NCBI GenBank assembly: GCA_963774015.1
Contig: CAVZDH010000001.1
Coordinates: 1,206,945 to 1,270,944 of the forward strand
Direction of reading: 5' to 3'
Source: an uncultured delta proteobacterium
Lineage (GTDB): Bacteria; Desulfobacterota; Binatia; UTPRO1
Length of the DNA stretch: 64,000 bases
Shown here piece by piece: positions 11,340 to 48,455 of this stretch; the first letter of the stretch is position 1, and each line of letters starts with the position of its first letter. Under the pieces are notes generated by a model that was not told where the DNA came from, did not search any database, and worked only from the letters and a program-made list of their open reading frames with translations. A program made the position numbers and the translations under genes.

Positions 11340-11623
11340 CGTGGGCGCTGTGGCAAACGGTATGGGGCCCTTCGCCTACTCGGTTGTCAGTTCCTGGCAG
11401 TCGACCGCGGGCTCACCGTCGGCCCGCGTGCGGCGTGGGAAGAGTCGGCGGCGATCGAGAACTGGGCTCGCCTCGGGATGACCGAGGCGCAGGTGCGGGG
11501 TGTCCTCGAGACGGCCCGGTCCTGACGGGGGACGCGGCTTGCGCGACACGGGCGCGGGAGGTAGCCAGCCTCAGAGGGACTGCGCGGCAAGGCGGGACAC
11601 GTACGTTTCGCCGGGAGCGGCAC

Positions 11624-15678: not shown

Positions 15679-16635
15679 TCACGCCGCCGGAGCCGCCGCA
15701 GAGTCGTACGTCGGCCGCAGCTCGGGGTCGCCCCAGCGCTCCAGATAGTCACGCCGGAGGCCGAGGCAGCTGCCGTGCTGATAGCGGCAGCCGTTGCACT
15801 TCTCGGCATAGGTGTTCGGCGAGATCTTCGACTCCCAGAGCGCGAACGTCGCACGCGGCGTCACGACGAGCACCTTGTCCTCGCGCAGGTCGGCGACGTG
15901 GTCCTCGTACCCCGGGAGCATGCAGCGCGGGATGTGCCGCGACCGCACGGTGACGCCGAGGCGCCTGCCACGTTCGAACGCGGCGACGATGCCGTCACGC
16001 ATCTCCGACACCGTCGGCAGCGATTCGAGGTTGTCGCGGTTGCGGTCGCTCAACGACACGAGCCAGAGGTTGAAGGTGTCGATGCCGAAACCAGCCCAGT
16101 GCTCGACGATGTCGCCGAGGTGCATCCACGTGTCGTGCTTGATGATGAGATCGCCGATCGGGGTGCGGCCGCGCGCCTTCAGGTTACGCACTCCTCGGGT
16201 CACGAGCGACAGCGCGTCCGGCCGGCCCATGATGCGCGCGTAGAGCTCGTCGGTGTGCGCCATGAACGAGATGTGGAAGTCGGTGACGCCGGCGTCGCAA
16301 GCGTCTGCGGTGAAGGACTCGTAGGAGTACATCAGCCCGTTCGAGGGAATCTTGATCGACCGCCAGCCGCGGTCGCGGCACCAGCGGACGAGCGGGAGGA
16401 GGTCGCGGCGGATGGTCGGCTCGCCGCCGCCGAAGGCGACCTTCACGGCGCCGCGGCGGCGGGCCTCGGCGAGCGCCGCCATGACCGGCGCGGTCGCCAT
16501 GTTCTCCCTCCGCATCGCGTCGGTGATCGAGCAGTAGTCGCACTGCACGTTGCAGGCGTAGCCGATCATCACGTCGACCAGGACGTCGGCGTACTCGAAC
16601 CACTCCTCGCCGAGCTTGACGACGGTTGCGCTCAT
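15679..16635 (-). CDS. radical SAM / SPASM-domain protein (peptide-modifying type)
   Basis: GYACNVQCDYC (CxxxCxxC). FGGGEPTIR (SAM-binding glycine motif). C-terminal Cys cluster CNGCRYQHGSC. ATGA overlap with the upstream gene. Confidence 0.85.
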   Translation of the reverse strand: MSATVVKLGEEWFEYADVLVDVMIGYACNVQCDYCSITDAMRRENMATAPVMAALAEARRRGAVKVAFGGGEPTIRRDLLPLVRWCRDRGWRSIKIPSNGLMYSYESFTADACDAGVTDFHISFMAHTDELYARIMGRPDALSLVTRGVRNLKARGRTPIGDLIIKHDTWMHLGDIVEHWAGFGIDTFNLWLVSLSDRNRDNLESLPTVSEMRDGIVAAFERGRRLGVTVRSRHIPRCMLPGYEDHVADLREDKVLVVTPRATFALWESKISPNTYAEKCNGCRYQHGSCLGLRRDYLERWGDPELRPTYDSAAAPAA

Positions 16636-18965
16636 GCCATCGCCACCACCGGGCGGGCACGCTCGACGCGCATGTCGGGCTTGTCCTGGAGGAACACCTG
16701 GAACCCCTCGCACACCGTGGTCCACGGGCACTCCGCGCAGACCTCCCGCTTTTCGCGGCGCGCTCCGAGCCACTCGTAGAGGTTCACTTGCTCGGGAAAG
16801 CGGGGGTCGGCGGCGAAGACCATGGTGCGGCCCATCTTCTGCAGGTCGCCGACGACGTAGCGTTCGTAGCCCGGAAAGACGCAGAACTGCGCGTTGATGA
16901 CGTAGATCTGGATCTCGTCCGCATAGCGGTCGATGACGCGCATCACCGCGTTCGCCGCCTCCTCGAGCGGCGGCACCACGTCCTCCCAGGCCCGCCCGAA
17001 CGGGGTGGTGAACTGGAAGTTGATCTTGGAGAACCCCTTCGCCACCGCCAGCGCGGTGAGCGCCATGAGGTGCGCGACGTTGGCGCGCACGATCGTGACG
17101 TTGAGGCCGGTCTCCAGGTGCGCGGGCCCGCGCGCGCCGAGCGCGCTGCGCAGCTCCATGACGTTGTCGATGCCGGCGACCGTCTCCGCGAAGCTGCCGG
17201 GCGAGTCGGTGGCCGCTTCGTGCACCTCGGCGGTGGCGCCGTGCAGCGAGATCAGGAGGTGCGAGATGCCGCTGCCGACGACGCGCTCGGCGAGCGCCCG
17301 GTCGCGCAACAGGCGGCCGTTGGTCGTCAGGTTGATCGAGCGATAGCCGAGCTCGCGGGCGAGGCCGATGGCGTCCGTGAGGCGCGGGTGCGTCGTCGGC
17401 TCGCCGCCGTCGATGTCGAGCTGGTCGGTCCCTTCGTCGCGGTGCTGCCGCAGGATCTCCTCGATCTTGTCCCACCCGAGCGCGGCCGACACGCGGTCGC
17501 CGGTGGCGCAGAACACGCACCGGTTGGCGCACTTGTAGGTGATGTTCATGATGAGCTTCTGCGCCGCGCGGGCCGCGATTTTCATGTCGAACGCGGCGCG
17601 CGCCTTCTCGAGGTACCCCGGAGGGCAGCCGGGCGGGTCGAAGCAGGGGCGGTGCTGGAAGAGCGCCCCGTCCTTGAGATCGATGCCCCCGGGCGGGATG
17701 AGTCCCATGGACACGCACTCGTCGTGGAGCGCGGTGCCGAGGATCGGGGTCGCGAACTGCATCGACGGCCACGCCCGGTAGCGGTCGTAGAGCTCCCACG
17801 CCATCTCGAGCGTGCCGGTCACGTGCGCCGGCGTCTCCCAGGGAAAGCCGATGATGTAGTGGCTCATGAGCGGCACGTCGATCTCGCGGCACCACTCCGC
17901 GACGCGACGAATGGCCTCCAGCGGCTGGCCCTTGCCGATGGGTCCGTTCAGATCTTCCTGCGTCGCGCTCTCCGCCGAGATGCTGAGCATGCCGACGCGC
18001 CCCTTCATGAGCGCGATCGCTTCGCGGCTCAGGTGATCCGCGCGCATGCCGTTCGGGAAGTCATAGGTGAAGTCGAGCTCGTTCAGCATGCGGAGCATCG
18101 CCTCGAAGTCCGTCCGGACGTTCACCATCTCGTCCAGGACGATCAGCTTTGTCGCGCCGAATACGGTCTTGAGGAGATATGCCCAGTGCGTGAGGCGGGG
18201 CAGGGGGATCGGCCGGTAGAGCTTGCGTCCCGTCCGTCGCCAGCCCGGGTTGCTGGTGCAGAAGATGCAGCGATGCGGGCAGCCGATGCTGGTGACGAAC
18301 GAGCGCGTCCCGGTGCCGACGCCGAACGTGTTCTGCCATGTCCCGTCGCCGAAGCAGCGCTCGAGGAAGCGATCGAAGTTGCCGACGTCGATGCCGTCGA
18401 GGAAGTAGAACGGCTCGAGCGGGTCGGCGCCGCGCCCCTCCGAGCCGCGCAGCACGACGCGCGCATCGCCAAGGCTCGCGAGATATTCGGGCTCGGCGAA
18501 GAGACGCTCGCCGGGATACTTCAGGATCGCGTCGAGCTCCGGATATTGCGCCAGCGCCTGGTCGGCGTCGTAGTCGGCGTAGTGCTGGCCGCCCACGTAG
18601 CCGTCGGCGAGTAGCAGGACGGAGCGCGGAAATCGCGCCCGGAGCGCCGCGATCAAGGCACGCGTCTCGGCATGGGCGTTCTCGATGCGGAGGAAGACGG
18701 GACCGCCGAGGACCACGACGTCGTACCTGCCGCGGGGGAGCGACGCGATGAAGTCGTCGTGGCCGACGCCGAGCACCCATCCACCGGCGGCCCGGCGGTG
18801 GCGACCCGAGTCGGGCAACGCGAACGCGTCGTGCACCGTGACCTCGGCGCCCGACCGCGCCGCCAGCCCGGCACACGCGAGCAACCCGTGATTGGCGAAG
18901 AACGGGTAGTCGATGAAGTCGTCCTCGAGGACGAGCGGCGGATTGATGAAGAGGAAACGGGACAT
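16632..18965 (-). CDS. B12-binding (class B) radical SAM domain fused to a second radical SAM/SPASM-like domain (777 aa)
   Basis: N-terminal LFINPP..GLLACAGLAARSGAEVTVHD (cobalamin-binding fold), then CPHRCIFCTS, then a second core YKCANRCVFCATGD with DIDGGEPT, and a C-terminal CAECPWTTVCEGF. It is one continuous ORF. Confidence 0.8.
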   Translation of the reverse strand: MSRFLFINPPLVLEDDFIDYPFFANHGLLACAGLAARSGAEVTVHDAFALPDSGRHRRAAGGWVLGVGHDDFIASLPRGRYDVVVLGGPVFLRIENAHAETRALIAALRARFPRSVLLLADGYVGGQHYADYDADQALAQYPELDAILKYPGERLFAEPEYLASLGDARVVLRGSEGRGADPLEPFYFLDGIDVGNFDRFLERCFGDGTWQNTFGVGTGTRSFVTSIGCPHRCIFCTSNPGWRRTGRKLYRPIPLPRLTHWAYLLKTVFGATKLIVLDEMVNVRTDFEAMLRMLNELDFTYDFPNGMRADHLSREAIALMKGRVGMLSISAESATQEDLNGPIGKGQPLEAIRRVAEWCREIDVPLMSHYIIGFPWETPAHVTGTLEMAWELYDRYRAWPSMQFATPILGTALHDECVSMGLIPPGGIDLKDGALFQHRPCFDPPGCPPGYLEKARAAFDMKIAARAAQKLIMNITYKCANRCVFCATGDRVSAALGWDKIEEILRQHRDEGTDQLDIDGGEPTTHPRLTDAIGLARELGYRSINLTTNGRLLRDRALAERVVGSGISHLLISLHGATAEVHEAATDSPGSFAETVAGIDNVMELRSALGARGPAHLETGLNVTIVRANVAHLMALTALAVAKGFSKINFQFTTPFGRAWEDVVPPLEEAANAVMRVIDRYADEIQIYVINAQFCVFPGYERYVVGDLQKMGRTMVFAADPRFPEQVNLYEWLGARREKREVCAECPWTTVCEGFQVFLQDKPDMRVERARPVVAMA

Positions 18966-18969
18966 TGCG

Positions 18970-20007
18970 CTACAGGGGGCGCTCCATCGCCTGCTGCCGG
19001 CGCTCGAGCGACGGCTGCTCGGTCAGGGAGCGGCGACCGCCTCGTGCCATGAGCCGCGCCATGAGCTCCGGCGACGGGTTGCGTCTCAGCACTTTCGCGA
19101 TCACCGGGGTGGGGTCGTCGAAGATCGGCGAGAGCTCGCGCTCGTCGTAGCTCTTCGCCATCGAGAACATGCCCGCACAGATCGGGTCGAAGCGGCACGC
19201 CTGACAAGCGTCACCCTTGCCGTGGAGGAACTCCTTCTGGTGGATGAAGCCCTTGAAGTCGAGGAAGCGAATGCAGCGCTCCTCCTCCTTGATGATCTTG
19301 CGCGCTTCCGTCGAGGCCCACGCGTAGCGCCGCATGTAGCAGAGCGGCACGCGCTCGGCGCGAAAGCTCCGCCCCGTGCTCACGAGGTAGTCCATCGCCT
19401 TCTCGAGCGACACCTGGAACTCGTAGTGCCGCGGGATGCAGTCGGGATTCTCCTCGGCGCGATTGCCGTCGGGGTCCATGTTGTTCCAGACGAAGTGGCG
19501 GATGAACGGGAAGTTCTCGCAGATCCAGCGGACGTTCTCGTGGAGATGGTCGGCGTTCCAGACGTTGATGACGGTGTTGATGTCGGAAGTGATGCCCATC
19601 TCCGGGACGTGCTCCAGGCAGCGGACCAGCACGTCCCACGCCCCGCGATACTGCGTGATGAAGTCGTGGACCTCGCGCCGGTAGCTGTGGAGCGAAACGT
19701 GGATGTGGGTCAGGCCGGCATCGACGCAGCGCTTGAAGAAATCCTTGTCGGCGAGCTTCTGCCCGTTGGTGATCATGCGGCTGAAGAGCTTCCGCTCGCG
19801 TGCGTACGCGAGCGCGGGGAGCAGGAGCTCGGAGGTGCTCGGCTCCCCACCGGTCAGGATCACGCCGTCGTAGCCCATCTCGACGAGCTTATCGATGTTG
19901 CGGCGCATCTCGGGCTCGTCGAGATGCACGCCGGTCGGCGGGTTACTGCAGAAGTGGCACTTTTGGTAGCAGTTCCGCGTGAGCTGAAGGTAGCCGAGGT
20001 TTGCCAT
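18970..20007 (-). CDS. radical SAM / SPASM-like protein
   Basis: LTRNCYQKCHFCSNP. LTGGEPS. C-terminal CYMRRYAW..CIRFLD..GDACQACRFDPICAG. Confidence 0.85.
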   Translation of the reverse strand: MANLGYLQLTRNCYQKCHFCSNPPTGVHLDEPEMRRNIDKLVEMGYDGVILTGGEPSTSELLLPALAYARERKLFSRMITNGQKLADKDFFKRCVDAGLTHIHVSLHSYRREVHDFITQYRGAWDVLVRCLEHVPEMGITSDINTVINVWNADHLHENVRWICENFPFIRHFVWNNMDPDGNRAEENPDCIPRHYEFQVSLEKAMDYLVSTGRSFRAERVPLCYMRRYAWASTEARKIIKEEERCIRFLDFKGFIHQKEFLHGKGDACQACRFDPICAGMFSMAKSYDERELSPIFDDPTPVIAKVLRRNPSPELMARLMARGGRRSLTEQPSLERRQQAMERPL

Positions 20008-20016
20008 CGCCGGTCG

Positions 20017-21894
20017 TTACCCTTGGAGCGAAACCTGGCGCCGCTGCGCGGCCTCTTGGCGCGCGCGCTCGCGTTCCTCGCGTTTTTTTTGCGCGAACTC
20101 GATCAACGGCTCGACCGGGGCTGCTTGCGGCGGCGCGAACCCGGGGAGGCTCGGCCCGACTGGCTGCAGGGGCTGGCCGTCGCGGACGCGCGGGAGGGGT
20201 ATCGGCCGAAGCGCGAGCAGCTGCGCCGCCGCGTCCTCCGCCCACGCGCCTTCGCGCAGGGGCTGGAGCTCCGCGAAGCCCTGGTCGCGGATGAAATTGA
20301 TGTGCGCACCCTCGCAGCGCTCGTTCACGCGGCAATCGCGGCAGCGGAGCGATTTGGCCTGGTACCCGTGCACGACGTGCGTTCGTGCCAACTCACGGAT
20401 GGCGATGCGACCGGTCTCCGGGTCGAACAGCTTCCGCTCGAGCACCTTGGGCGCCTCGACGAGCTGTGTTCCCGGAGCGAGACAGGCGGTCAGACCGCTG
20501 GTCCGGATGGGGAGCGCGAGCTCGGTGAAGAAGCGCTTCAGATCGCGTACGTCGTTGGCGACCGCGTCTTTCAGGAACTCGTAGGTCGGCTGATGCAGAC
20601 GGACGACGTCGAGGTACGTCTGCACGCGCTCGCGCTGCGACAGCAGCCAGGGGGCGGTGCGCTGGTTCAGCTCGATCTCGACCTCGACACTCGCGGGCAA
20701 CGGCGTCCCGCTCAGCACGACGTCGAGCTGCTCCGGTTCGCGAAGAGCGAGCAGGAGGCGGTTCGGCACGCTCGCACGATCGACGAGTCGGGAGGTGCGT
20801 TTCGGTCGCACGTAGATGCCGACGTCCGGATGCACGCCGAGAGCTTCGACGTCCGGCAGATCGTCGATCTCGAGGCCGACGGATCGGCACCCGAACGGCA
20901 GTTCGCTCGGCGCCGGCAGGGTTTCGTTGGCTCCGTTGGCGGCGCCGATCCACCAGACGTTCCAGCTCTCCCGGTTCTGGCGCTCGATTACCCGATCGGC
21001 CGTGGTGCAGAACGGCTCGATGAAGCAGTGCACGCACCGCTCCTGTTGCCGGCATTCGAGGGGAACGCCTTCGTCGAGGTACTTGCGCACCTGGAAGCGC
21101 CGCCCGTTCACCTCGTCGAGCATCTTGTGCGGATCCTGGATGAGGTCTTCCAGACCCTCGAGGAACTCGACCGGGAAGCGATTCGTCCACACCACGACGT
21201 TGGGATGGCGGTTCAGGCGAAAGACCTTCTGCAGGCGGGGCAGGTGCTCGACGGGATCGTAGAAGAGGTCGTCCCGGTTCTCGAACGCCGCGCCCTGCGG
21301 GATGACGTGCAGGAGGTCGAACTCGTTGACTCCCACCGAGAGGCAGAGCGCGACGATCTTGTCGATGTACGCCACGTTCTGCTTGTTGATGCAGACGTCG
21401 ACGTTCACGATGACGCGTCCGTCGCGGCGGGCGCGGATCATGCCCTTCATGAGCCGGTCGAAGGCGCCCTCGACGCCCGTCAGGCGGTCGTGCAGCTCGG
21501 GCGTGTGGCCGTGCAGGCTGAACGTGATCTCGCCGAGACCGGCCTCGACGGCCGCCAGGTAGAAGTCGCGCTTCGCGAACATGTAGCCGTTGGTGACCGT
21601 CTGCACCCGGTTGTAGCCGATCTCCCGGGCGTAGCGGACGAAGTCGATGAACTTCGGGTGGATCGAGCCTTCGCCGCCCGACAGGATGACCTTGTCGGCG
21701 TTCAGCTCCTCGCGCCCGCGCCGGAGCTCTTGGCGGACGTCGGGCTCCAGCAGGTACATGTTCCGCGGCGTGTCCGTGTCGAGGCAGAACACGCAGCGGC
21801 TGTTGCACGCCGTGACGAGCCGTACCCAGTGCTTCCGGACGTTGGCCGCGCGCTCGCGGTCCAGCATCCGTTCCGTCAGCTGTCCAGCATCCAT
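20017..21894 (-). CDS. radical SAM protein with a long C-terminal extension (625 aa from MDAGQ; alternative start at 21921)
   Basis: VTACNSRCVFCLD and LSGGEGS. A downstream Cys pair ..CRDCRVNERCEG, then a K/R/E-rich tail. The upstream third of the 968-aa ORF is R-rich, non-coding-like, and overlaps gene 21876..23813. Confidence 0.8.
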   Translation of the reverse strand: MDAGQLTERMLDRERAANVRKHWVRLVTACNSRCVFCLDTDTPRNMYLLEPDVRQELRRGREELNADKVILSGGEGSIHPKFIDFVRYAREIGYNRVQTVTNGYMFAKRDFYLAAVEAGLGEITFSLHGHTPELHDRLTGVEGAFDRLMKGMIRARRDGRVIVNVDVCINKQNVAYIDKIVALCLSVGVNEFDLLHVIPQGAAFENRDDLFYDPVEHLPRLQKVFRLNRHPNVVVWTNRFPVEFLEGLEDLIQDPHKMLDEVNGRRFQVRKYLDEGVPLECRQQERCVHCFIEPFCTTADRVIERQNRESWNVWWIGAANGANETLPAPSELPFGCRSVGLEIDDLPDVEALGVHPDVGIYVRPKRTSRLVDRASVPNRLLLALREPEQLDVVLSGTPLPASVEVEIELNQRTAPWLLSQRERVQTYLDVVRLHQPTYEFLKDAVANDVRDLKRFFTELALPIRTSGLTACLAPGTQLVEAPKVLERKLFDPETGRIAIRELARTHVVHGYQAKSLRCRDCRVNERCEGAHINFIRDQGFAELQPLREGAWAEDAAAQLLALRPIPLPRVRDGQPLQPVGPSLPGFAPPQAAPVEPLIEFAQKKREERERARQEAAQRRQVSLQG

Positions 21895-23813
21895 CGTACC
21901 GACCTCGCGTTCCGCTGCCATCCGATCGCCGTGCCCGGGCAGCCGATCACGGTACACACATTTCCGTCGTCGCCGCAGCTCGCAAATGCGCCGACTGGAT
22001 CCGAGCCACGCGGGGCGTACTCGACGCGTCGGCCGAACGCGACGCCGAATGCCGGCCCCTCGCCCTCCACCGACTCGCCGGAAGCACGATCGCCCACGTC
22101 GAGACCTGCTTCCTCGCACAGGCAGTGCGGCAGCACCGCCAATAGCGCCGATCGCGCGGCGCCCGCCGGCAAGCGGCGCGCGCACTCGACGACGTCGTCC
22201 AGTAAAGACCCGTCCGCCGCCAGGCGAAACCGCGGCTGCCCCGGCAGCTCGCCGCGGCTCCACGCGTCGACGAATAGGGGAACCAAGCGCGCGTCGTGGA
22301 TGATCCCGTACGCGCCGACCTCGATCGACGTGTGCTCGTGCAATCGCTCGATGCCACGCAGGGTCGCCGCGAAGGAGCCGGCGATCCCGCAGTGGGCGTC
22401 GTGGCTCGTTGCGTCGGGTCCATAGAACGCCACGTCGATGCGCCGGAGGTCCTTCAATCGACGCAAATCGACGTCGCTCCACTTGACGATGGCGCTCCCC
22501 TCGCCGGCGCATTCGACGCGCGGGAAGAGCCGGACCGCATCGAAGAGCAACGCGGCGGCCTTCGGATGAGCGAGCAGCTCGGCGCCCACGAGCTGCAACA
22601 CCGCCGGCCGGAAGCGCGCGGCCTCGACCAGCCTCGCGCGCACGGCGCGCGTCGACTCGGGTCCGAGCGTGGAATGACCGCCTGCGGTCGAATGACCGCC
22701 TGCGGTCGAATGACCGTCGGCGCACCCGTCGCACCGGAGGCGGCGGGGTCCGCGCCATGAGAGCACCATCGTTCCGGATGGCCGTACGCTCTGCTGCGCG
22801 GCGACGTTCTCCCGAACGCGCTCCGCGATCGGCGCCAGGTCGGCGAGCTCTTCCCAACCGAAGCGCGCAACGTAGTCCGCTGGGGCTCCCGCGCACTGCG
22901 GCCCGCCGGGGCAGTCCGGGCATCCGCGCCCGGCTTCGAGCCCACCATCACTCGACCGCGCCGACTCCATCGACGCGACCGACTGCGCCGACTTGGTCGG
23001 TGCGACCGTGCCGCCCGTCGTCAGCCACACTTCGGCGTCGGAGCGGGCGAAGAGCCGTCGCAGCCGCGGCGCCACGCAGAGGGGGAAATCGCGAATCACC
23101 AAGCGGGCCCGTCGCTGGAGTGCGATCGTCGCCGCGCGTTCGAGATCCTCGGCGAGCAGCGACAGGCGCGGCGAGAGCAGGACGAATTCGGGGACGTCGA
23201 CGTCGACTGCGGTGAGACGCCGGAGCGAGATCGTCCGGACACCAACGCGCGTGAGGACGTCGACCGTCTCCGCGAGATGCGGCATCGTCGGCCGGGTGAC
23301 GACGACCTCGGCCTCGACCGGCATGCCGGTGTCGACGCAGGTGCGAATCGCGCGCAGCGCCGTCTTGAGCGCGCCCGGTTGCCCGACCAACCAGTCGTGG
23401 GCATCCCGGCGTGCACAGTGAAACGGTATGCTCAGCCGCTGCACGCCGGCGGATCGCAGCCGGTCGACCACGGTGTTCGTGAGTCCGGCACCCGTGGTGC
23501 AGAGGCCCAGATTCTCGGGGCGTAGCTCCAAGAGATCGTGGAGAAGAGAGGGCAGGTCGGCGCGGCGAAGCGGATCTCCGCCACCGATCAGGAAGGCGCC
23601 GGGTCGGTCCGTGACGGCGCGCGCGGCGTGGAGGACGTCGCTCGCCGGAAGCTCATCGTCGGCCGCCGCCGCACCGCCTCGCCACGGCAAGCGGGCCGGA
23701 CCGCGAACCAGCGAGACACGGAGGTTGATGCCCCGGATCGAGGCACCTGGTCCGGGGCCCCGTCCGCGCTCTTCGCTCGACGGCGTCGGATAATCGTGGA
23801 GAGTGGTGTTCAC
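21876..23813 (-). CDS. tandem double radical-SAM-like/SPASM-like protein lacking the CxxxCxxC triad in both halves
   Basis: Half 1: ..GINLRVSLV.. (no Cys), FLIGGGDPL, then CPDCPGGPQC. Half 2: VLQLVGAELLAHP, then CGDDGNVCTVIGCPG. The halves are joined by a GGHSTA x3 linker. Confidence 0.6.
   Translation of the reverse strand: MNTTLHDYPTPSSEERGRGPGPGASIRGINLRVSLVRGPARLPWRGGAAAADDELPASDVLHAARAVTDRPGAFLIGGGDPLRRADLPSLLHDLLELRPENLGLCTTGAGLTNTVVDRLRSAGVQRLSIPFHCARRDAHDWLVGQPGALKTALRAIRTCVDTGMPVEAEVVVTRPTMPHLAETVDVLTRVGVRTISLRRLTAVDVDVPEFVLLSPRLSLLAEDLERAATIALQRRARLVIRDFPLCVAPRLRRLFARSDAEVWLTTGGTVAPTKSAQSVASMESARSSDGGLEAGRGCPDCPGGPQCAGAPADYVARFGWEELADLAPIAERVRENVAAQQSVRPSGTMVLSWRGPRRLRCDGCADGHSTAGGHSTAGGHSTLGPESTRAVRARLVEAARFRPAVLQLVGAELLAHPKAAALLFDAVRLFPRVECAGEGSAIVKWSDVDLRRLKDLRRIDVAFYGPDATSHDAHCGIAGSFAATLRGIERLHEHTSIEVGAYGIIHDARLVPLFVDAWSRGELPGQPRFRLAADGSLLDDVVECARRLPAGAARSALLAVLPHCLCEEAGLDVGDRASGESVEGEGPAFGVAFGRRVEYAPRGSDPVGAFASCGDDGNVCTVIGCPGTAIGWQRNARSVRWMLDS
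22672..22725 (-). repeat. 18-bp tandem repeat (gaatgaccgcctgcggtc, 2 perfect + 1 diverged) encoding GGHSTA x3
   Basis: Direct reading. It lies in the inter-domain linker of the 21876..23813 gene. Confidence 0.7.
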
Positions 23814-23884
23814 CTGGTGACGTCCGTTCCGTCGGGGACGGTTAGCACGTCAGCAGGGCCACCTGCCAGGATTTTCTGATCGGC

Positions 23885-25540: not shown

Positions 25541-27022
25541 CTAGCGATGCCGGCCGGCTCCGGTCGTCCAGCGCTGCAGGATCTCGATCGTCGCGCGGTC
25601 GTTCTCGTCCGCCAGTGACGCGAACAGCGTGCGTGCGACGGCCATGTGCTCCTTGCACTCGAAAGATCGCGGCCGTTGACCGAAGAGGTCTCCTTCGCGG
25701 ACGTAGCTCGTCACGGGGGAGATGCCGCAGAACGGCTTGTTCCAGCAGTCCGCGCACATCGGCTGCGCGTCGAGGAGCGATGCCGCCGTGATCGCCCGGA
25801 CCGTCGGGTGTCGGACGATGTCGGCGATCGTCAGCTTTCGCACGTTGCCGAGCGCGAAGATGGGATCCCCCAGCGCGTCGACGCGCCGTGCCTCGTCGCT
25901 CGGGAATATCTGGCCATCGACGTCGTACAGGAGCTCGCTCGTCCCGGCCGAGCACGGCGATCGGATCTCCCGCGCAGCGGGATTCCCGCAGGACAGGATG
26001 CTGTTCAGGAACCCCGACGCCGTTCGCTCGGCGAGGCGCACCCCGCTGCGATTCAGCTCCAGGATATGGCCGAACGCACGGTCGTAGAATGCCAGGTATT
26101 CCTCGGCAGTGTACCCGATCGTTTGCCACGCCTCGGCGTCGAAGCCGAGCGGGCTGAGCGGTTGCAGCTGGATGGACTGCATCCCACGAGCCACGTACTC
26201 GTCCACGACCTCGCGCCACGCCGGCAGCGTTCGCCGCGTCGTCGTGACTCTGGTGTCCACGTGCCAAACCTCGGGATCGCGACCGAGGTCGCGGTATCGA
26301 CGCTCGAACCACGCGAGCCACCGCACCACGTCCGCGTGTGCGCCGGCCACCGTGTACCTGCGGTTCCACTCGTGGATCTCGGCTGGTCCGTCGAGCCACG
26401 TCCGGACGGCGACGTCGTTTGCGAGCAGCCACTCCGCGGTCTCCTCCGTCATCCCGCTCAGGTTGCTGACGAGCGTGAAGCGGAGCGTCTTGCCCGCGGC
26501 GCGCTCGTTCGTCGCCCGCGCGAATTCCACCAGGTGCCGGACGCCGTCGACGTTCAGCAGCGGCTCGCCCGCATGCGCCTGCAGCTCGAACGACACCGAA
26601 GGGGACGTGGTCTGGAGCGCGACGTCGACGATGCGCTCGGCCGTTTTCCGATCGAGGTCCAGGCGAGCGTCGGGTGACGCGGACGGGGCCTCGCCACGGT
26701 CATCGCAGCGCCGGGTCATCATGACGACGTGCAGCTCCGGCCCGCGCGCGACATGGCCCACGCGCCGCGCCAGCCTGGTTGCGAGCGCGTCGAGATCGAG
26801 GCCGTCGCGAAGAAAACCCCCGGCGTGGAGCTGCGCGAAGCGCGGGTGGCCTTCCGTGACCTCTCCCGCGAGCAGTTGGACGAACTCCGGCTCGCTCAGG
26901 AGCACCCAATCGCCACCGTCCGTGGTGATCAGAACCTTCCCGGCGATTCGGCCCCAGCGAAAGAATCCCAGCCGATCGATCGCGACCGTCGACGGGAAAG
27001 GTACCGCGAAGCTCGCGGACAT
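25541..27022 (-). CDS. HxsB/HxsC-like radical-SAM-fold maturase homolog with a degenerate Fe-S motif (..MTRRCDDRGEAP..) and a C-terminal SPASM-like cluster
   Basis: Second rSAM motif QAHAGEPLL. CADCWNKPFCGISP. Only one Cys where CxxxCxxC is expected. Tightly packed with neighbours (1-nt and 0-nt junctions). Confidence 0.65.
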   Translation of the reverse strand: MSASFAVPFPSTVAIDRLGFFRWGRIAGKVLITTDGGDWVLLSEPEFVQLLAGEVTEGHPRFAQLHAGGFLRDGLDLDALATRLARRVGHVARGPELHVVMMTRRCDDRGEAPSASPDARLDLDRKTAERIVDVALQTTSPSVSFELQAHAGEPLLNVDGVRHLVEFARATNERAAGKTLRFTLVSNLSGMTEETAEWLLANDVAVRTWLDGPAEIHEWNRRYTVAGAHADVVRWLAWFERRYRDLGRDPEVWHVDTRVTTTRRTLPAWREVVDEYVARGMQSIQLQPLSPLGFDAEAWQTIGYTAEEYLAFYDRAFGHILELNRSGVRLAERTASGFLNSILSCGNPAAREIRSPCSAGTSELLYDVDGQIFPSDEARRVDALGDPIFALGNVRKLTIADIVRHPTVRAITAASLLDAQPMCADCWNKPFCGISPVTSYVREGDLFGQRPRSFECKEHMAVARTLFASLADENDRATIEILQRWTTGAGRHR

Positions 27023-27312
27023 TACTGAGCGCCCTCCGGACGGCCCTCCGGGCGGCCCTCCGAGGCTTCGGGCGCCTCCGGCGCCTCGAGCGCGGCGGCC
27101 CGCCGCATTCGCACGACGGTTTCCTGCAAGGCGAGGTTGCAGAACGAGTGCTCGATCGTGTCGCGATCAGCGCCGCGAACGGCGCCGACGACCGCGACCA
27201 CCGCGTCGCCCGAGTGCTCGAGGGCGATGTCCGCGTACTCGGCGTAGGTCGCCGCTGCTGCCTCGACGGCGTCGGGAGCGTACAGCGATCGGTCGAAGGT
27301 GATCCGGCCCAT
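27022..27312 (-). CDS. HxsD-like small protein (96 aa)
   Basis: MGRITFDRSLYAPDAVEAAAATYAEY..EHSFCNLALQETVVRMRR. Pattern Y..EAI..AAY...(40 aa)..F.N.LL....R. The upstream 41 codons of the ORF look spurious. Confidence 0.55.
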   Translation of the reverse strand: MGRITFDRSLYAPDAVEAAAATYAEYADIALEHSGDAVVAVVGAVRGADRDTIEHSFCNLALQETVVRMRRAAALEAPEAPEASEGRPEGRPEGAQ

Positions 27313-27328
27313 CCGAAACGTGGCGACC

Positions 27329-27838
27329 CTACTTCGGCTCGCTTCCCTTGTCGCTTTGCTTCCCTTCCCAGGGAACGGAGATCTCGAGCGGGTCGTCCCC
27401 GAGCTCTTCCGCGTCGAGCTCGGCGAGGAGATCATCGACGGACGGCGCCGAGGCCGCTGCTCGCAACGCTGCGGCCGTGTAGTACTCGCGGATGCGCGCG
27501 GCGGCGTGCGATAGGCGCAGCCGCGTCGCCTGCGAGAGCATCTCGTTCATGAACTCGCCGGCGAGCACTTCGAGCTCGGCGGACGTCGCTGGTGCACGCG
27601 ACGTCAAGCGAACGTTCACCACCTGGGGTCTCGGCCGGGAGAGAAACACGAAGCACCGGTCGACGAAAAGATACGCCCCCCCGTAGATCGCTTCGAGGGA
27701 ATAGACCGTCTCGTCGACGTCGAATGATGCATGATCGCGCCCGAACGAGACGCCGAGGCGCGACTCGGGGACTTCCGACCGAACGTCATGTTCACCGATC
27801 GCCACGGCTCTTCCTTTCGCCCGTCGTTCTTGGTTCAC
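27329..27838 (-). CDS. second HxsD-like paralog (up to 169 aa; start uncertain)
   Basis: ..VYSLEAIYGGAYLFVDR..GEFMNEMLSQATRLRL. Same pattern as above. GTG start at 27838. Confidence 0.45.
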   Translation of the reverse strand: MNQERRAKGRAVAIGEHDVRSEVPESRLGVSFGRDHASFDVDETVYSLEAIYGGAYLFVDRCFVFLSRPRPQVVNVRLTSRAPATSAELEVLAGEFMNEMLSQATRLRLSHAAARIREYYTAAALRAAASAPSVDDLLAELDAEELGDDPLEISVPWEGKQSDKGSEPK

Positions 27839-28210
27839 CGGTGCGGGCCAGCGTCTGCTCGCGCACGAGGACGACGGATGTAGCTCAATTGCGAACTGGC
27901 GGGCAACAACGTCGTCGAAATGGAGATGTGGCGTCGGCGATCGCGTTCCGCATGATGCACCGTGTCTCCTCCCAGTCGGGACGTTCCTGCTACCTGGTCG
28001 CGCGTGTCGACGATGAGTCGCTCCAGGTGGCGCTCAATTCCGAGCGGGGCACGGCGCACGCGACCTGCGCCTGCACGAATGCACGATGTCGTGCGTTGCG
28101 CACGACGCGCGGCCCGTGCGGGTGCAGCCGTGTGTGGAGCCGATTCATCGCTGCCGATCATCCTGCGCCAAAAAGTCGCGCCAAAATTTCGTCGCCTCCT
28201 TACTTTTTCA

Positions 28211-28236
28211 TTGACAAGTTCCCCTGCACCTATGGT
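28211..28236 (+). promoter_or_regulatory. candidate sigma70-like promoter (TTGACA ..14 nt.. TATGGT) in the divergent intergenic region. Local GC drop at 28140-28320.
   Basis: Direct reading. The spacer is short, so this is weak. Confidence 0.2.
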
Positions 28237-28415
28237 AGCGGATCGCGTCCCCAAGTGCCGCGCCCCCACATGTCGCACATATCGCTCATAAGCGTTTCGC
28301 AAAAAGGCGGCTCGTCCGCGATGACGATCCACGCGGTGGTGGTCTCTGCGGAGCGGCATGGTGGGGAAGGATGTCGGAGGCGCGAGGGAGTCAGGTTTCC
28401 AGAAGGGAGCGGGCG

Positions 28416-29021
28416 ATGCTTTCACGACGCGAATTGATCGGCAAAGCGGCAGTGGGTGCGGCCGCAGCGTTGGCAGTGGGGGGCATGGGAACGGCGGTGG
28501 CGGCGACGCGGCCCCTGCGGGTGCCGATGGACGATCCCACGCGCGGCCGGGACGGGCGGACAGCGACGGACGCGCCCATGGACGCCGCGGAGGCGCCGGA
28601 CGCCGCCGCAGCGAGCGCCGCGCCGCCGCCCTGGGAGCTGCTGGCGCCGTTCCGTGCGGGCGCCGTGGTCGCGCACGGCTGGCGTCTCGTCGACGTGACG
28701 CCGATCCGGGACGGATCGGCGGTCGTGACGCTGCAGAACGCGCGTGGGCGCGCGCACCGCGTGCATCTTTGCCGCAATGACGGGAGCCCGCAGGGGATCG
28801 TCTACACGCGGCGGGTCGATCTCGTGGTGATGAATCAGGGCTACGGGGATCTTCCGACCGAGGAGCATCTGGGGCAGGCCGTTGCGACGCTGGCGCATGC
28901 GGTGGCGGCCAACGAGGCCCGGGTGCCGGACGGCGTATTCGCCGAGCTCGTGCCGCACGCCGAGCGCGTGCGGCGCTACGCGGCGGCGGCGGATGCTTCG
29001 GCGGACGGCAGGCTGCGGTGA
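28416..29021 (+). CDS. Tat-signal secreted hypothetical protein
   Basis: RBS agggagcgggcg, then MLSRRELIGKAAVGAAAALAVGG (twin-arginine motif). It lies 37 nt upstream of the HxsA-like gene. Confidence 0.6.
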   Translation: MLSRRELIGKAAVGAAAALAVGGMGTAVAATRPLRVPMDDPTRGRDGRTATDAPMDAAEAPDAAAASAAPPPWELLAPFRAGAVVAHGWRLVDVTPIRDGSAVVTLQNARGRAHRVHLCRNDGSPQGIVYTRRVDLVVMNQGYGDLPTEEHLGQAVATLAHAVAANEARVPDGVFAELVPHAERVRRYAAAADASADGRLR

Positions 29022-29058
29022 CGGGCGGACGCAAGCGAACTCAGGTGAAGGAGCCGAC

Positions 29059-29376
29059 ATGAGCGACCAAGAGAAGGGGCTGCCGTTACTGCGCAAGACG
29101 CCGGTGGATTTCCTCAGTCGGGAGGAAGCCCGCCAAGCGCTCAATCCCGACGTCGCGCTGGACGCGTCCGAGGCGGCGCGGGCGCTGCGCGCCGAACCCA
29201 ACAGCGAGAAGCTGCTGCTCGCCCAACATTTGTCCCACGCATCGCACGGCAGCCACGGGAGTCACGGCAGCCATGGGAGTCACGGGAGCCACGGGAGCCA
29301 CGGCAGCCACGGCAGTCACGGCTCGCACGGCAGTCACGGTTCCCACGGCAGTCACGGCTCTCACGGGTCGTGGTGA
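29059..29376 (+). CDS. hxsA: His-Xaa-Ser repeat precursor peptide (HxsA-like): leader plus (H-G/A-S)x16 and a C-terminal Trp
   Basis: RBS ggtgaaggag, then ATG 29059. Leader MSDQEKGLPLLRKTPVDFLSREEARQALNPDVALDASEAARALRAEPNSEKLLLAQHL. Core SHASHGSHGSHG....SHGSW*. Confidence 0.75.
   Translation: MSDQEKGLPLLRKTPVDFLSREEARQALNPDVALDASEAARALRAEPNSEKLLLAQHLSHASHGSHGSHGSHGSHGSHGSHGSHGSHGSHGSHGSHGSHGSHGSW
29235..29370 (+). repeat. 9-bp coding microsatellite (cac-ggn-agy)n, ~15 units
   Basis: Direct reading of the hxsA core region. Confidence 0.85.
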
Positions 29377-29425
29377 GAATCCGCCCGGTATCAGAACGCA
29401 CCTCGGCGTAAACGGAGGCATCGCG

Positions 29426-32400
29426 ATGACGATAGCTCGGCCACAGCGGAGAATTTGGGCGGCGCAGACCCGTGCGTTCGGTACGACGACACCGGGTCGC
29501 GCAAGACGGCACGGCTCGGCTCTGGCCAGCATGGCGACCCTGGCGGTCCTCGGACTGCTGGTCGCGGCGGCGCCGGCCGCGGCAATCGTCCTCACCGGCG
29601 GGCCGACGTATTCGCCTGGTAGCGGGTGGTCCTGCACCGCGCCGGCTGCCGGCCTCGAGAAGCTCGCCGGTGGCGGCAACTACTCGTGTAGCGGCACCGC
29701 GAGCGCATTCAGCAATCTCTACATCGGCATCAACAGCAACACGGGCTCGCCGTTCGGCGACAAGATGAACAGCAGCGGCGGCTCCGAGCCGAGCGGCGCG
29801 GAGCGGTTCGTGTGGTCGGCGAACGGCTCGACCTTCATCCGCTACACGGGGACCACCTCGATCACCGGCTTCGGCACGGTGTTCACGCGCGTGACGCTCA
29901 CGTTCAGTGCCTCGGGCGCGGTGGTGGACGACGCGACGACCCAGGCCCTCACCGGCACCAATATCAACGGCTCGGTGCATGCGTTGTGGCGCATTGGGTC
30001 GGGGGTCGGTGCGATGACCGTCAACGTCCTGATCGAAGCGAGCAGCAGCTCCGGCGGGCCCTGGTCTCCGGCGGACGTGTTTTTCAACAACGGCGGGCAC
30101 CGCTTGGGTAACGGCACCGACGTCGACCGCTCGCACGTCGACCTGGCGTTCTACACATCGACCTGCGGCGATGGCCAAATCGATACCGTGGCCGGGACTG
30201 ATGCGAGTGCCGAGCAGTGCGACACCGGGATCGCCGGCAGCGTCTGCTGCAACTCCAACTGCACCTTCAACAGCGGTAGCGTGTGTCGCGCCGCGGCGGG
30301 CGTGTGCGACGTGCAGGAGACCTGCAACGGGTCGAGCGCGACGTGCCCGGCCAATGCCTTCGTGAGCTCGGCGACGGTCTGCCGGCCGTCGGCGGGGGTC
30401 TGCGACACGGCGGAGAACTGCACGGGATCGTCAGCGGCATGTCCTGCCGACTCCTTCGCGAGCTCGGCGACGGTCTGCCGGTCGTCGGCGGGCATCTGCG
30501 ACACCGCGGAGAACTGCACGGGATCGTCAGCGGCATGTCCTGCCGACTCCTTCGCGAGCTCGGCGACGGTCTGTCGCGCGTCGGCGGGCATCTGCGACGT
30601 CGCCGAGAATTGCACCGGTTCGAGCGCCGCGTGTCCCGCCGACTCCTTCGCGAGCTCGGCGACGGTCTGTCGCGCGTCGGCGGGCGTCTGCGACGTCGCC
30701 GAGAATTGCACCGGGTCGAGCGCCGCGTGTCCGGCGAACGGCTTCCAGAGCTCGGCGACGGTTTGCCGTCCGTCGGCGGGCGTCTGCGACGTGGCGGAGA
30801 CCTGTACCGGGGCGAGCGCCGCATGTCCGGGCGACTCGTTCGAGAGCGCGGCGACGGTCTGCCGCGGCGCTGCCGGCGTCTGCGACCTGGCGGAGAACTG
30901 CACGGGCGCGTCGGCGGCGTGTCCCGCCGACAGCAAGAGCTCGGCGGTCTGCCGTCCGTCGGCGGGCGTCTGCGACGTCGCCGAGAGCTGCGACGGGGTC
31001 GGGAACAACTGTCCGGCCGACGGCTTCGCGAGCGCGGCGACGGTCTGCCGAGGCGCGGCGGGCGTCTGCGACGTGGCGGAGAACTGCACGGGCGCGTCGG
31101 CGGCGTGTCCGGCCGACAGCAAGAGCTCGGCGGTCTGCCGTCCGTCGGCGGGCGTCTGCGACGTCGCCGAGAGCTGTGACGGGGTCGGCAACAACTGTCC
31201 GGCCGACGGCTTCCTGAGCTCCTCGACGGAGTGCCGGAGCGCGGCGGGTGTCTGCGACCTGGCGGAGAACTGCACGGGCTCGTCGGCGGCATGTCCCGCC
31301 GACAGCAAGAGCTCGGCGGTCTGCCGTCCGTCGGCGGGCGTCTGCGACGTCGCCGAGAGCTGCGACGGGGTGGGTAACAACTGTCCGGCCGACGGCTTCG
31401 CGGGTGCCGCGACGGTTTGTCGGGCAGCGGGCGGCGTCTGCGACCTCGCGGAGAACTGCACCGGCGCGTCGGCGGCCTGCCCGGCCGATTCGAAGAGCAC
31501 CGCGGTCTGCCGTCCGAACGCGGGCGTTTGCGACACCCCCGAGACCTGCGACGGGGTGAGCAACGCCTGTCCGGCCGACACCTTCCTCTCGAGCGCGACC
31601 GTCTGCCGGCCTACCGCCGGCATCTGCGACGTCGCGGAGAACTGCTCGGGCTCGTCGGCTGCGTGCCCGACCGACGCTTTCGAGCCGAGCTCGACGGTCT
31701 GCCGCAGCGCCGCTGGCGTGTGCGACGCGGTCGAGAACTGCACCGGCAGTGGCGCGGCTTGCCCCGCCGACGGCAAGCTCAACGGCTCGACGACCTGCCG
31801 CGCGGCTGCCGACGTGTGTGACGTCGCCGAGACCTGCAACGGTTCATCCGACGACTGTCCCGCCGACGCCTTCGCCTCGTCGTCGACCGTCTGCCGGCCC
31901 GAGGCCGGCGTCTGCGACGTGGCAGAGAACTGCACGGGCAGCGGCGCGGCGTGTCCGGCCGACGCGGTGGAGCCGTCGAGCACCGAGTGCCGTCCGGTCG
32001 CCGGCATCTGCGACGTTGCCGAGAACTGCGACGGTAGCAGCGTGAACTGTCCGAGCGACTCCTTCGAGAGCAGCTCGGTTACCTGCCGGCCGGTGAACGG
32101 CGTCTGTGACGTCGCCGAGCAGTGCACCGGTACGGGCCCGAACTGCCCGGCCGACTCCTTCGAGAACAGCTCGGTGGTCTGCCGCCCATCCTCGGGCGTG
32201 TGCGATACCGTGGAGAGCTGCTCGGGCAGCGCGGCGGATTGCCCGGCCGATGGGGTCGAGCCGACCACCACGGTCTGCCGCCCGGCGGCGAGCACGGCCG
32301 ACGCGCCCGAGGACTGCGACGGCACGAACAAGTTCTGCCCGGCCGACGCCTTCTTGCCCGCCGGGACGCCGTGCGACGACGGCAGCTTCTGCACCTTCGA

Positions 32401-33214
32401 CGACCAGGCCGACGGCTTCGGGACCTGCGTCGGCCAGCCGGTCGATTGCGACGACCACAATCCCTGCACCGACGACTCGTGCGACTCGCAGTCGATGGGC
32501 TTCCTATGTGAGTACGTGAACAACGGCATCTGCATCGGGGCGAACTGCGGCAACTTCGTGGTCGACGCGGGAGAGACCTGCGATCCGCCCGACCTCGGCA
32601 TCGGCCCGAACGGCCAGCCCATCTGCCGGCTCGACTGCACGTCGTGCGGCGACGGCGTGGTGCAGGCGAACGACACCGAGACCTGCGACGACGGGAATCT
32701 GGTGAGCGGGTGCCGGACCGACAAGCCGCAAAAGCCGCTCGACGACTGCCTCAACAACTGCAACGAGCCGATCTGCGCCGACCCGGCCCGCATCCAGTTC
32801 GGGTCGGAGGTGCGGCCCGACGTCTACCAGTTCCACGGCCGCCTGATCTCGCCCGTGCCGGTGGACTTCGTGAACAACCACTTCGTGATCGAGCTCCAGG
32901 ACTCGAGCGGCAACGTGATCTACCGCTCGTCGTTGGTCCGCGGGTCGATCGAGGTGCAGAACGCGAAGTCGACACGTTACAAGAACCGTGGAGCGCGCGC
33001 CGCGGGTGGCATCTACCAGCTGAAGACGAAGCAGGCGGACGGCTACTACGTCGTGACCCTCAAGACCTACGGCGACATGTCGCTCGCGACGTCGGACATG
33101 TCGACGCACGTCTACATCGGCGCCGACGAATGGGCGATCCGCGGGATCTGGACGCAGCAGGGCTCGAAGGGCTGGAAGCTCACCAGCAAGGCGGTCTTCC
33201 TCCCCGTACCGTGA
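29426..33214 (+). CDS. giant secreted Cys-rich repeat protein. It has an N-terminal domain, ~25 tandem 32-aa CRxxAGxCDxAExCxGxSxxCPxD repeats, myxo-type CGDG..CDDGN Cys modules and a C-terminal beta-rich domain.
   Basis: RBS ggagg 8 nt before ATG 29426. Signal-like ..MATLAVLGLLVAAAPAAA. Repeats span 30285-32350, with adjacent 96-bp units identical at the DNA level. C-terminus ..YQLKTKQADGYYVVTLKTYG.. Confidence 0.8.
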   Translation: MTIARPQRRIWAAQTRAFGTTTPGRARRHGSALASMATLAVLGLLVAAAPAAAIVLTGGPTYSPGSGWSCTAPAAGLEKLAGGGNYSCSGTASAFSNLYIGINSNTGSPFGDKMNSSGGSEPSGAERFVWSANGSTFIRYTGTTSITGFGTVFTRVTLTFSASGAVVDDATTQALTGTNINGSVHALWRIGSGVGAMTVNVLIEASSSSGGPWSPADVFFNNGGHRLGNGTDVDRSHVDLAFYTSTCGDGQIDTVAGTDASAEQCDTGIAGSVCCNSNCTFNSGSVCRAAAGVCDVQETCNGSSATCPANAFVSSATVCRPSAGVCDTAENCTGSSAACPADSFASSATVCRSSAGICDTAENCTGSSAACPADSFASSATVCRASAGICDVAENCTGSSAACPADSFASSATVCRASAGVCDVAENCTGSSAACPANGFQSSATVCRPSAGVCDVAETCTGASAACPGDSFESAATVCRGAAGVCDLAENCTGASAACPADSKSSAVCRPSAGVCDVAESCDGVGNNCPADGFASAATVCRGAAGVCDVAENCTGASAACPADSKSSAVCRPSAGVCDVAESCDGVGNNCPADGFLSSSTECRSAAGVCDLAENCTGSSAACPADSKSSAVCRPSAGVCDVAESCDGVGNNCPADGFAGAATVCRAAGGVCDLAENCTGASAACPADSKSTAVCRPNAGVCDTPETCDGVSNACPADTFLSSATVCRPTAGICDVAENCSGSSAACPTDAFEPSSTVCRSAAGVCDAVENCTGSGAACPADGKLNGSTTCRAAADVCDVAETCNGSSDDCPADAFASSSTVCRPEAGVCDVAENCTGSGAACPADAVEPSSTECRPVAGICDVAENCDGSSVNCPSDSFESSSVTCRPVNGVCDVAEQCTGTGPNCPADSFENSSVVCRPSSGVCDTVESCSGSAADCPADGVEPTTTVCRPAASTADAPEDCDGTNKFCPADAFLPAGTPCDDGSFCTFDDQADGFGTCVGQPVDCDDHNPCTDDSCDSQSMGFLCEYVNNGICIGANCGNFVVDAGETCDPPDLGIGPNGQPICRLDCTSCGDGVVQANDTETCDDGNLVSGCRTDKPQKPLDDCLNNCNEPICADPARIQFGSEVRPDVYQFHGRLISPVPVDFVNNHFVIELQDSSGNVIYRSSLVRGSIEVQNAKSTRYKNRGARAAGGIYQLKTKQADGYYVVTLKTYGDMSLATSDMSTHVYIGADEWAIRGIWTQQGSKGWKLTSKAVFLPVP
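30285..32350 (+). repeat. array of 96-bp coding tandem repeats (many near-identical copies)
   Basis: For example, the block cacgggatcgtcagcggcatgtcctgccgactccttcgcgagctcggcgacggtctg.. recurs verbatim at 30421 and 30517. Confidence 0.8.
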
Positions 33215-36103: not shown

Positions 36104-36231
36104 GGCCTGCTCTACACCGATGCAGTTTTTCCTTCCAAGTCTGGGGAGATGCCGTGTATGGTGCGGCGCCGACTTCCAACCCCCGGCCCCTGCGCGGGGT
36201 CGCCATCAGAGCCCACGAGGATGAGGTGAGA

Positions 36232-48441: not shown

Positions 48442-48455
48442 ACGGCGAGCGAAGC

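Follow-up and report, generated by a model that had tools for sequence, protein, structure and literature searches.

A 64,000-nucleotide stretch of DNA from an uncultured delta proteobacterium (GTDB lineage Desulfobacterota; Binatia; UTPRO1), corresponding to positions 1,206,945 to 1,270,944 of the forward strand of contig CAVZDH010000001.1 (assembly GCA_963774015.1) and referred to below as the window, was analysed with respect to a gene cluster at positions 15679-33214, which a sequence-only reading had interpreted as a heavily elaborated form of the His-Xaa-Ser (HXS) system. The cluster comprises 12 genes in two divergent units and is probably a lineage-conserved, enlarged peptide-maturation system of the HXS family, of the HxsA4 type, in which a putative non-catalytic scaffold, a set of radical S-adenosylmethionine (rSAM) domains and an exported partner would successively handle one repeat peptide.

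Gene calling and collection of related loci

Genes were called from the G+C content at third codon positions (GC3) in combination with a frame plot, since the window has about 69% G+C and long spurious open reading frames (ORFs) are therefore common in it. Two divergent units were resolved by this procedure. The first is a minus-strand operon of nine genes running from 27838 to 15679 and encoding, in the direction of transcription, an HxsD homolog (G9), an HxsD-like protein (G8), an HxsB homolog (G7), a flavin-dependent halogenase (G6), a double pseudo-rSAM protein (G5) and the rSAM proteins G4, G3, G2 and G1. The second unit lies on the plus strand and contains the genes for a protein with a twin-arginine translocation (Tat) signal, the precursor peptide HxsA and a secreted Cys-rich protein. 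The successive minus-strand junctions measure 16, -1, 0, 71, -46, 9, 4 and -4 bp, six of the eight being 16 bp or less and the start of G1 overlapping the stop of G2 by 4 bp, a spacing consistent with the minus-strand genes forming a single transcription unit. The order of the seven genes downstream of the HxsD pair had been given correctly in the sequence-only reading and the gene calls are backed by the GC3 frame plot, which favours them over overlapping shadow ORFs; the long minus-strand ORFs at 15679-17895, 20017-22923 and 30151-32793 were rejected on the same grounds as frame or shadow artefacts. That reading had overlooked the Tat-signal gene (28416-29021, plus strand) and the identity of the ORF at 29273-33214.

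Protein families were scored with NCBIfam and Pfam models against the cutoffs of the models. Related loci were obtained by using HxsB homologs as seeds (loci L001-L006), by a scan of GTDB that gave 34 species-level loci, all of them metagenome-assembled genomes (MAGs) labelled Candidatus Binatia, Deltaproteobacteria, Polyangiaceae or similar, and by a metagenome scan seeded with G3, in which 331 relatives were found and 80 were kept; counts for G3-seeded loci refer to these 80 of 331. Synteny maps were built with tblastn.

Precursor peptide

The gene hxsA (hxsA4; 29059-29376, plus strand) encodes a precursor peptide of 105 residues, the translation of which agrees with the earlier description of a leader, 16 repeats and a final Trp. 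A polar leader of 56 residues, with the N-terminus MSDQEKGLPLLRK and no signal peptide, is followed by 16 HxS repeats (HLS, HAS and 14 HGS) and a C-terminal Trp. The peptide passes the NCBIfam model NF038313 for HxsA4 (102.4 bits, cutoff 55) and fails that for canonical HxsA, TIGR03979 (16.5 bits, cutoff 121.65), the peptide family thus being already catalogued in NCBIfam as HxsA4. Both AGY and TCN codons are used for Ser and the repeat is matched at the DNA level to just 76-86%, indicating that it is selected at the protein level. Orthologs have leaders of 51-96% identity and about 11-33 repeats; among 33 complete HxS-repeat ORFs, the Xaa position is Gly in 90% of the repeats and the terminal residue is Trp in 32, the remaining one ending in Phe. 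Marine peptides read ...HCS(HGS)nHGQW. At locus L004 a decayed hxsA fragment was seen between two Cys-rich genes.

Within Pfam the only match of HxsA is a compositional one to Collagen (PF01391, 31 bits, gathering threshold 27.2), and no peptidoglycan-binding domain was found there. This match, weak matches to Scl adhesins and the strict Gly-X-Y periodicity would suit a short collagen-like (Gly-Ser-His)n structural peptide whose rSAM neighbours are unrelated to it. Such a peptide is very improbable, as the match is driven by composition, the array has only 14-31 triplets with no trimerisation domain, anchor or signal peptide, and its linkage to HxsB and HxsD is tight and conserved in two different gene orders, as described below.

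Conservation of the gene cluster

The cluster was found in dozens of MAG and metagenome loci from soil and marine sources. The operon order HxsD, HxsD-like protein, HxsB homolog without the CxxxCxxC triad, optional halogenase, G5, G4, G3, G2 and G1 recurs in more than 15 loci at 70-98% amino acid identity, and the divergent unit of Tat-signal protein, HxsA4 and Cys-rich protein recurs likewise (for example in L003, L010/L043, L034, L054, L058 and L063). At L027:2-8859, a single maturation operon is preceded by three Tat-hxsA cassettes in tandem, two of which have a Cys-rich gene behind them. In marine contigs the cluster takes a compact form, in the order G5, G4, G3, Tat-signal protein, HxsD, HxsB and HxsA. 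Conservation within the cluster is highest for G3, whose orthologs are 94-98% identical as against 72-82% for HxsB, and the trio G5-G4-G3 is present in 79 of the 80 G3-seeded loci.

HxsB, HxsD, the Tat-signal protein or HxsA was found in 43 of the G3-seeded loci, 27 of the 80 being too short to evaluate and only 4-5 with enough flanking sequence lacking all of them, so that approximately 90% of the evaluable loci carry at least one. Operons of this rSAM type thus seldom occur without Hxs genes, and the proposal that their adjacency to the HXS peptide is not coincidental was borne out by this gene-neighbourhood comparison.

HxsB and HxsD homologs

Two tandem HxsD-like genes had been proposed and both are present, with unequal scores. 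The product of the first operon gene, G9 (27329-27838, minus strand), falls just under the cutoff of TIGR03976 for HxsD (45 bits, cutoff 50), and its orthologs carry the Pfam HxsD domain PF27806. G8 (27022-27312, minus strand; the ORF reaches 27435, with a likely start at 27312) passes NF038315 for HxsD_rel (48 bits, cutoff 41) and has orthologs of 76-81 residues.

The HxsB homolog G7 (25541-27022, minus strand) likewise falls just short of its model (TIGR03978, 365.1 bits, cutoff 370) and contains no CxxxCxxC motif. In the clade to which it belongs, a variable, indel-rich segment stands in place of the CxxxCxxC loop, and two SPASM cysteines have been replaced (FPCDE by FPSDE and CGVCP by CGISP; alignment A1), the match of G7 to the SPASM model PF13186 being below threshold (19 against 21.5). 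HxsB relatives at 57-60% identity retain both the triad and the SPASM cysteines and score 484-518 bits on TIGR03978. The N-terminal region of the HxsB homolog, roughly 95 residues, is highly conserved and is a candidate for a leader-recognition element of RRE type. In E. coli the cluster of HxsB is essential, the C98A/C101A mutant being inactive (Li et al., Nat Commun 2026, PMC13128918); G7 is presumed to be a non-catalytic, peptide-binding scaffold.

In many relatives, G1 is followed by a second HXS module, in which HxsD2 and HxsD-like2 are joined by an HxsB2 that is intact and scores 484-506 bits on TIGR03978 (L058:13365-17013, L043:12427-14778, L005:11040-16505 and L034:19678-21480); L058 and L005 also encode, close to this module, a peptide beta-hydroxylase of the aKG-HExxH type (TIGR04267).

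Radical SAM and pseudo-radical SAM proteins

Five intact CxxxCxxC motifs were counted, one fewer than previously stated: one in G1 (at C28), two in G2 (C229 and C479), one in G3 (C13) and one in G4 (C39). Three of the eight rSAM-like domains lack the triad, namely G7 and the two halves of G5, for which the absence of the Fe-S cysteines had been recognised correctly. The Pfam Radical_SAM domain was found in G1-G5, all of which also carry C-terminal CxxCx5-6C motifs, and the SPASM model PF13186 had no match in them.

The rSAM protein G3 (18970-20007, minus strand; 345 residues) has its best NCBIfam match in TIGR03977 HxsC (95.8 bits, cutoff 267.9) and is, of the proteins of the cluster, the nearest to HxsC. 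G4 (20017-21921, minus strand; 634 residues, or 625 with the alternative start at 21894) contains one CxxxCxxC motif, two CxxCx5C motifs and a long C-terminal extension. The double rSAM protein G2 (16632-18965, minus strand; 777 residues) resembles AprD4 (6fd2, best solved relative, E 1e-11) and HpnJ (38 bits) in its N-terminal half, and PqqE and BlsE in its C-terminal half; the latter gives the best score on the HxsC4 model NF038332 (115.2 bits, cutoff 500), on which relatives reach at most 141 bits. The operon ends with the rSAM protein G1 (15679-16635, minus strand; 318 residues). An rSAM protein with a B12-binding domain had been proposed among these genes and is not established: the B12-binding model PF02310 had no match at E<=0.01 in any of G1-G5, and the N-terminal rSAM core of G2, the candidate concerned, is nearest to AprD4 and HpnJ. 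AprD4 is not known to use cobalamin. The proposed methylation of the product, which depended on that domain, is left without a firm basis.

G5 (21876-23813, minus strand) matches PF04055 (54 bits at residues 53-178) and AhbD in two stretches; its halves are weakly colinear with each other, each of them resembling a SPASM-type rSAM core. CxxxCxxC was found in none of more than 39 orthologs of G5, soil or marine, down to 24% identity. The linker between the halves contains a tandem repeat of GHSTAG type with three full HSTxG copies (22659-22715, minus strand; residues 367-385), just after a residual CxxC, and varies in length and sequence among orthologs, with HPTAG repeats in L007 and L008 and none in others.

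The missing triads, together with halogenase genes that are decaying in L007 and L008, might be taken to mark pseudogenes in a chance or deteriorating assembly whose adjacency has no function. This is scarcely credible in view of the conservation data: the ORFs are intact with strong GC3 signal, the triad-less proteins are full-length in dozens of loci, and synteny is kept across soil and marine lineages. Since G5 is triad-less in all of the 39 or more orthologs and the HxsB triad is lost in one clade and kept in its sisters, the sequences argue that triad loss in G5 and G7 is selected, in conserved full-length proteins and not in decayed genes or through errors, and the simplest reading of both is a structural or substrate-holding role. 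Precedent for inactive rSAM homologs kept in maturation loci is given by the 'pseudo-SAM/SPASM' proteins of TIGR04347.

Halogenase

The presence of a halogenase homolog in the operon was confirmed. G6 (23885-25540, minus strand) scores 379 bits against PF04820 Trp_halogenase and contains the GxGxxG (GGGTAGY) and WxWxIP (WCWRIP) motifs, the Lys of TWKLGI and the Glu of EPLES. Its best solved relative is MibH (5uao; 479.9 bits, 48% identity), free-Trp halogenases scoring at most 212 bits. MibH halogenates peptide-bound Trp in the lantibiotic NAI-107, and bromination of a C-terminal Trp, guided by the leader, is recorded for its relative SrpI (review, PMC12615548). Because of this relationship and of the invariant terminal Trp, HxsA4 is the likely substrate of G6. 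The gene is present in the window, L003, L044 and the more distant L022 and L035, and is absent from most other loci; in L007 (4933-5109) and L008 (3086-3241) only a C-terminal remnant (residues ~469-528) persists between HxsB and G5, pointing to recent gene loss. The halogenase is an optional accessory gene. Halogenation of the peptide, as previously suggested, is plausible, with MibH as the nearest solved relative and a terminal Trp in 32 of 33 peptides; in most orthologous loci the gene is absent or decayed.

Exported partners and divergent intergenic region

The Tat-signal protein (28416-29021, plus strand; 201 residues), encoded directly upstream of hxsA, fills what had seemed a gap of 1.2 kb. 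It begins with a twin-arginine signal (MLSRRELIGK..., MLSRRELIGKAAVG), has no Pfam or NCBIfam family match and belongs to a large, unannotated family of 955 homologs in 506 clusters at 50% identity, in which the invariant residues include H117, C119, M139 and H181. An AlphaFold2 model has a predicted local distance difference test (pLDDT) score above 90 for most of residues 70-196, and comparison of the modelled mature domain gave no match to a known fold. In 37 of 48 evaluable loci, a homolog is encoded upstream of HxsD at a distance of 1.5 kb or less.

The Cys-rich protein (~29426-33214, plus strand, with a start at 29426 or 29531 within the ORF 29273-33214) is secreted and matches PF00200 Disintegrin with 350 bits over 21 stretches. 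Its N-terminal domain is beta-rich and specific to the lineage, and 21 disintegrin-type repeats and a C-terminal domain follow; it is this N-terminal domain that is conserved beside hxsA, in 17 loci. Two further Cys-rich paralogs with disintegrin repeats are encoded in the window (35743-39003, plus strand, and ~53491-56184, minus strand), and these share only the repeats with the hxsA-adjacent copy, without its N-terminal domain.

The intergenic region between the two units (27839-28415) was compared by alignment of 11 orthologous regions, in all of which two promoter-like blocks are conserved. Block 1 consists of TTGACA (28211-28216) and, 17 bp later, TGGTAG (28234-28239), and is directed towards the Tat gene and hxsA; block 2 (TTGCC...GCTACA, ~27878-27907) is directed towards hxsD. 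From this conservation, both blocks are likely to be promoters. A scan for consensus sigma-70 promoters and terminators found no promoter-like site, and terminator-like sites were fewer than in shuffled sequence; an Rfam scan of the 577-bp region gave no riboswitch, and no metal-regulator box was evident in the alignment.

Comparison with known systems

The HXS system was reportedly defined by Haft and Basu in 2011. The statement in the sequence-only reading that it has no characterised product or chemistry is outdated, as canonical HXS (HxsABCD) is an antiphage system that blocks phage DNA entry, with a modification of +8 Da mapped on one SHRSS motif and the rSAM chemistry still undefined (Li et al., Nat Commun 2026, PMC13128918). 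HxsC of E. coli is in complex with HxsD, maturation of the periplasmic HxsA there depends on the clusters of HxsB and HxsC, and the modified protein is itself the effector (PMC13128918). In canonical HxsA, a signal peptide and a peptidoglycan-binding domain are combined with about five HxS repeats of basic character, and canonical systems have four genes in more than 99.8% of cases and occur in Pseudomonadota in 99.7% (PMC13128918).

The present cluster shares with canonical HXS an HxS-repeat substrate, an HxsB-family SPASM protein, an HxsD protein and an HxsC-like rSAM protein, and its product, too, is expected to act outside the cytoplasm. It differs in having 12 genes instead of four, with nine on one strand and hxsA divergent instead of the order D-B-C-A; in a precursor of 105 residues with 16 repeats and a terminal Trp and with neither signal peptide nor peptidoglycan-binding domain; in an HxsB homolog that lacks the cluster essential in E. 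coli; in the additional G5, G4, G2, G1, Tat partner, disintegrin-repeat protein and optional halogenase; and in its occurrence in uncultured soil and marine lineages. When scored against the HXS models, as the sequence-only reading had proposed, the locus gave a divided result: the peptide and the small HxsD-like protein pass their type 4 models (NF038313 and NF038315), whereas HxsC4 (NF038332) fails, the canonical cutoffs for HxsA, HxsB and HxsC are all missed, and HxsD stands at 45 against 50 bits. The type 4 models name single proteins, and a literature search found the canonical HXS paper and no paper on HxsA4, HxsC4 or HGS repeats.

A role in antiphage defence, in which matured HxsA4 would build up in the periplasm and block phage DNA as in canonical HXS, was considered in this light and is unlikely. 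The homology of HxsB, HxsD and the HxS repeats to a system that blocks DNA entry (PMC13128918), the exported partner proteins and the His-rich array speak for it; HxsA4, however, has neither the signal peptide nor the peptidoglycan-binding domain, and the basic residues emphasised in canonical HxsA are missing from its repeats. The cluster is flanked by housekeeping enzymes (SDR, enoyl-CoA hydratase, GNAT and PMT-type transferases) with no mobile elements or defence genes in these flanks, PADLOC returned for the locus only generic similarity to viperin-type rSAM proteins, and synteny across the whole lineage, with G3 at 94-98% identity, is unlike that of an arms-race locus.

The same domain families are also found in the SPASM/twitch rSAM peptide maturases (PqqE, MftC, AlbA and others), although far more domains are present here, five live and three dead, all of them presumably directed at one repeat peptide. 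The similarity of the rSAM proteins to PqqE, MftC, AhbD and MoaA would accord with a small-molecule or cofactor factory, in which HGS units or the terminal Trp are modified and excised as for PQQ or mycofactocin and the repeat number sets the yield; the variation from ~11 to 33 repeats without change of context, the invariant terminal residue and a degree of conservation resembling that of a housekeeping function would fit as well. Such a factory is nonetheless a decidedly improbable explanation, as the cluster encodes no peptidase, the effector of the canonical system is the modified protein itself, and the very strong conservation of the leader is of the kind seen in peptide products.

With regard to MibH and SrpI, the halogenase stands here in an rSAM/HXS context as opposed to a lanthipeptide or proteusin one, and is dispensable in most of the orthologous clusters. 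The locus resembles clusters for rSAM-dependent ribosomally synthesised and post-translationally modified peptides (RiPPs) in that the gene for a short precursor, whose leader is conserved and whose core is modifiable, stands beside those of its maturases. As a whole it appears to be an undescribed and much larger relative of the four-gene HXS system; the enlarged architecture, the pseudo-enzymes, the Tat partner and the link to a secreted protein all appear undescribed.

Other features of the window were recorded in passing. A membrane protein with C-terminal TPR repeats (33245-34903, minus strand) flanks the cluster and a PMT_2-type glycosyltransferase (48150-50090, plus strand) lies farther off, no cluster link being seen for either in the relatives. 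A large ORF at 11054-13411 (plus strand) encodes a signal-like segment followed by Gly/Asp-rich (GGxGxD-like) repeats, and its product may, judging from these repeats, be a secreted calcium-binding protein.

Proposed maturation scheme and its significance

The reading of the locus as an enlarged HXS-family maturation system can be laid out as follows. The ribosomal precursor, made up of the conserved 56-residue leader, the (HGS)n array and the C-terminal Trp, is predicted to be co-transcribed with the two exported proteins. In the cytoplasm, its leader would be held by a non-catalytic scaffold formed by the cluster-less HxsB homolog, HxsD, the HxsD-like protein and G5, and the five intact rSAM domains (those of G3, G4 and G1 and the two of G2) would act iteratively on the His and Ser residues of the repeats. 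Where present, the MibH-like halogenase would chlorinate or brominate the terminal Trp. The matured peptide might, more speculatively, leave the cytoplasm by hitch-hiking on the Tat-signal partner; its site of action would be the periplasm or the cell surface, where this partner and the disintegrin-repeat protein would act with it. An envelope role is suggested because the peptide, itself devoid of a signal peptide, shares its unit with two exported proteins; the conservation of these partners points to a matured peptide acting in the envelope and less to a secreted natural product of the classical type, with metal handling and an envelope barrier as candidate roles.

Several points weigh against this scheme. 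The scaffold role of the pseudo-enzymes and the Tat hitch-hiking are pure inference, and modification of HxsA4 is itself deduced from sequence. The HxsC and HxsC4 thresholds are reached by no protein of the locus, and among the 12 genes neither a leader peptidase nor a dedicated exporter was recognised with NCBIfam or Pfam models. The second HxsD/HxsB module seen in relatives is not found in the 64-kb window, synteny with those relatives stopping at ~15679, the stop of G1, so that some of the machinery may be encoded at another place in the genome. The disintegrin-repeat protein is missing from the marine variants and is therefore not a universal partner, and no relatives by fold could be recognised for the Tat-signal protein or for the N-terminal domain of the secreted protein.

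A more far-reaching version of the scheme is possible, though doubtful. In it, (HGS)n-Trp would be converted by the five rSAM domains, on the pseudo-enzyme scaffold, into a poly-modified, His-derived polymer with one modification per repeat, would be carried out by hitch-hiking on the Tat carrier and would function in the envelope of Binatia-like bacteria and related marine lineages, as a factor for metal binding or redox reactions; the system would then be no defence system but a new RiPP class, such as the sequence-only reading had raised, and its export logic would be new as well.

With 16 or more near-identical target sites, any modification made per repeat would be multiplied and thereby easy to read by mass spectrometry, and for biocatalysis a halogenase whose likely target is a C-terminal Trp has practical appeal. 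The division into dead scaffold and live enzymes could show how maturation complexes with multiple rSAM domains are organised, in a family that counts 331 relatives of G3 and, for the Tat partner, 506 clusters at 50% identity, extends through soil and marine microbiomes and is entirely unstudied.

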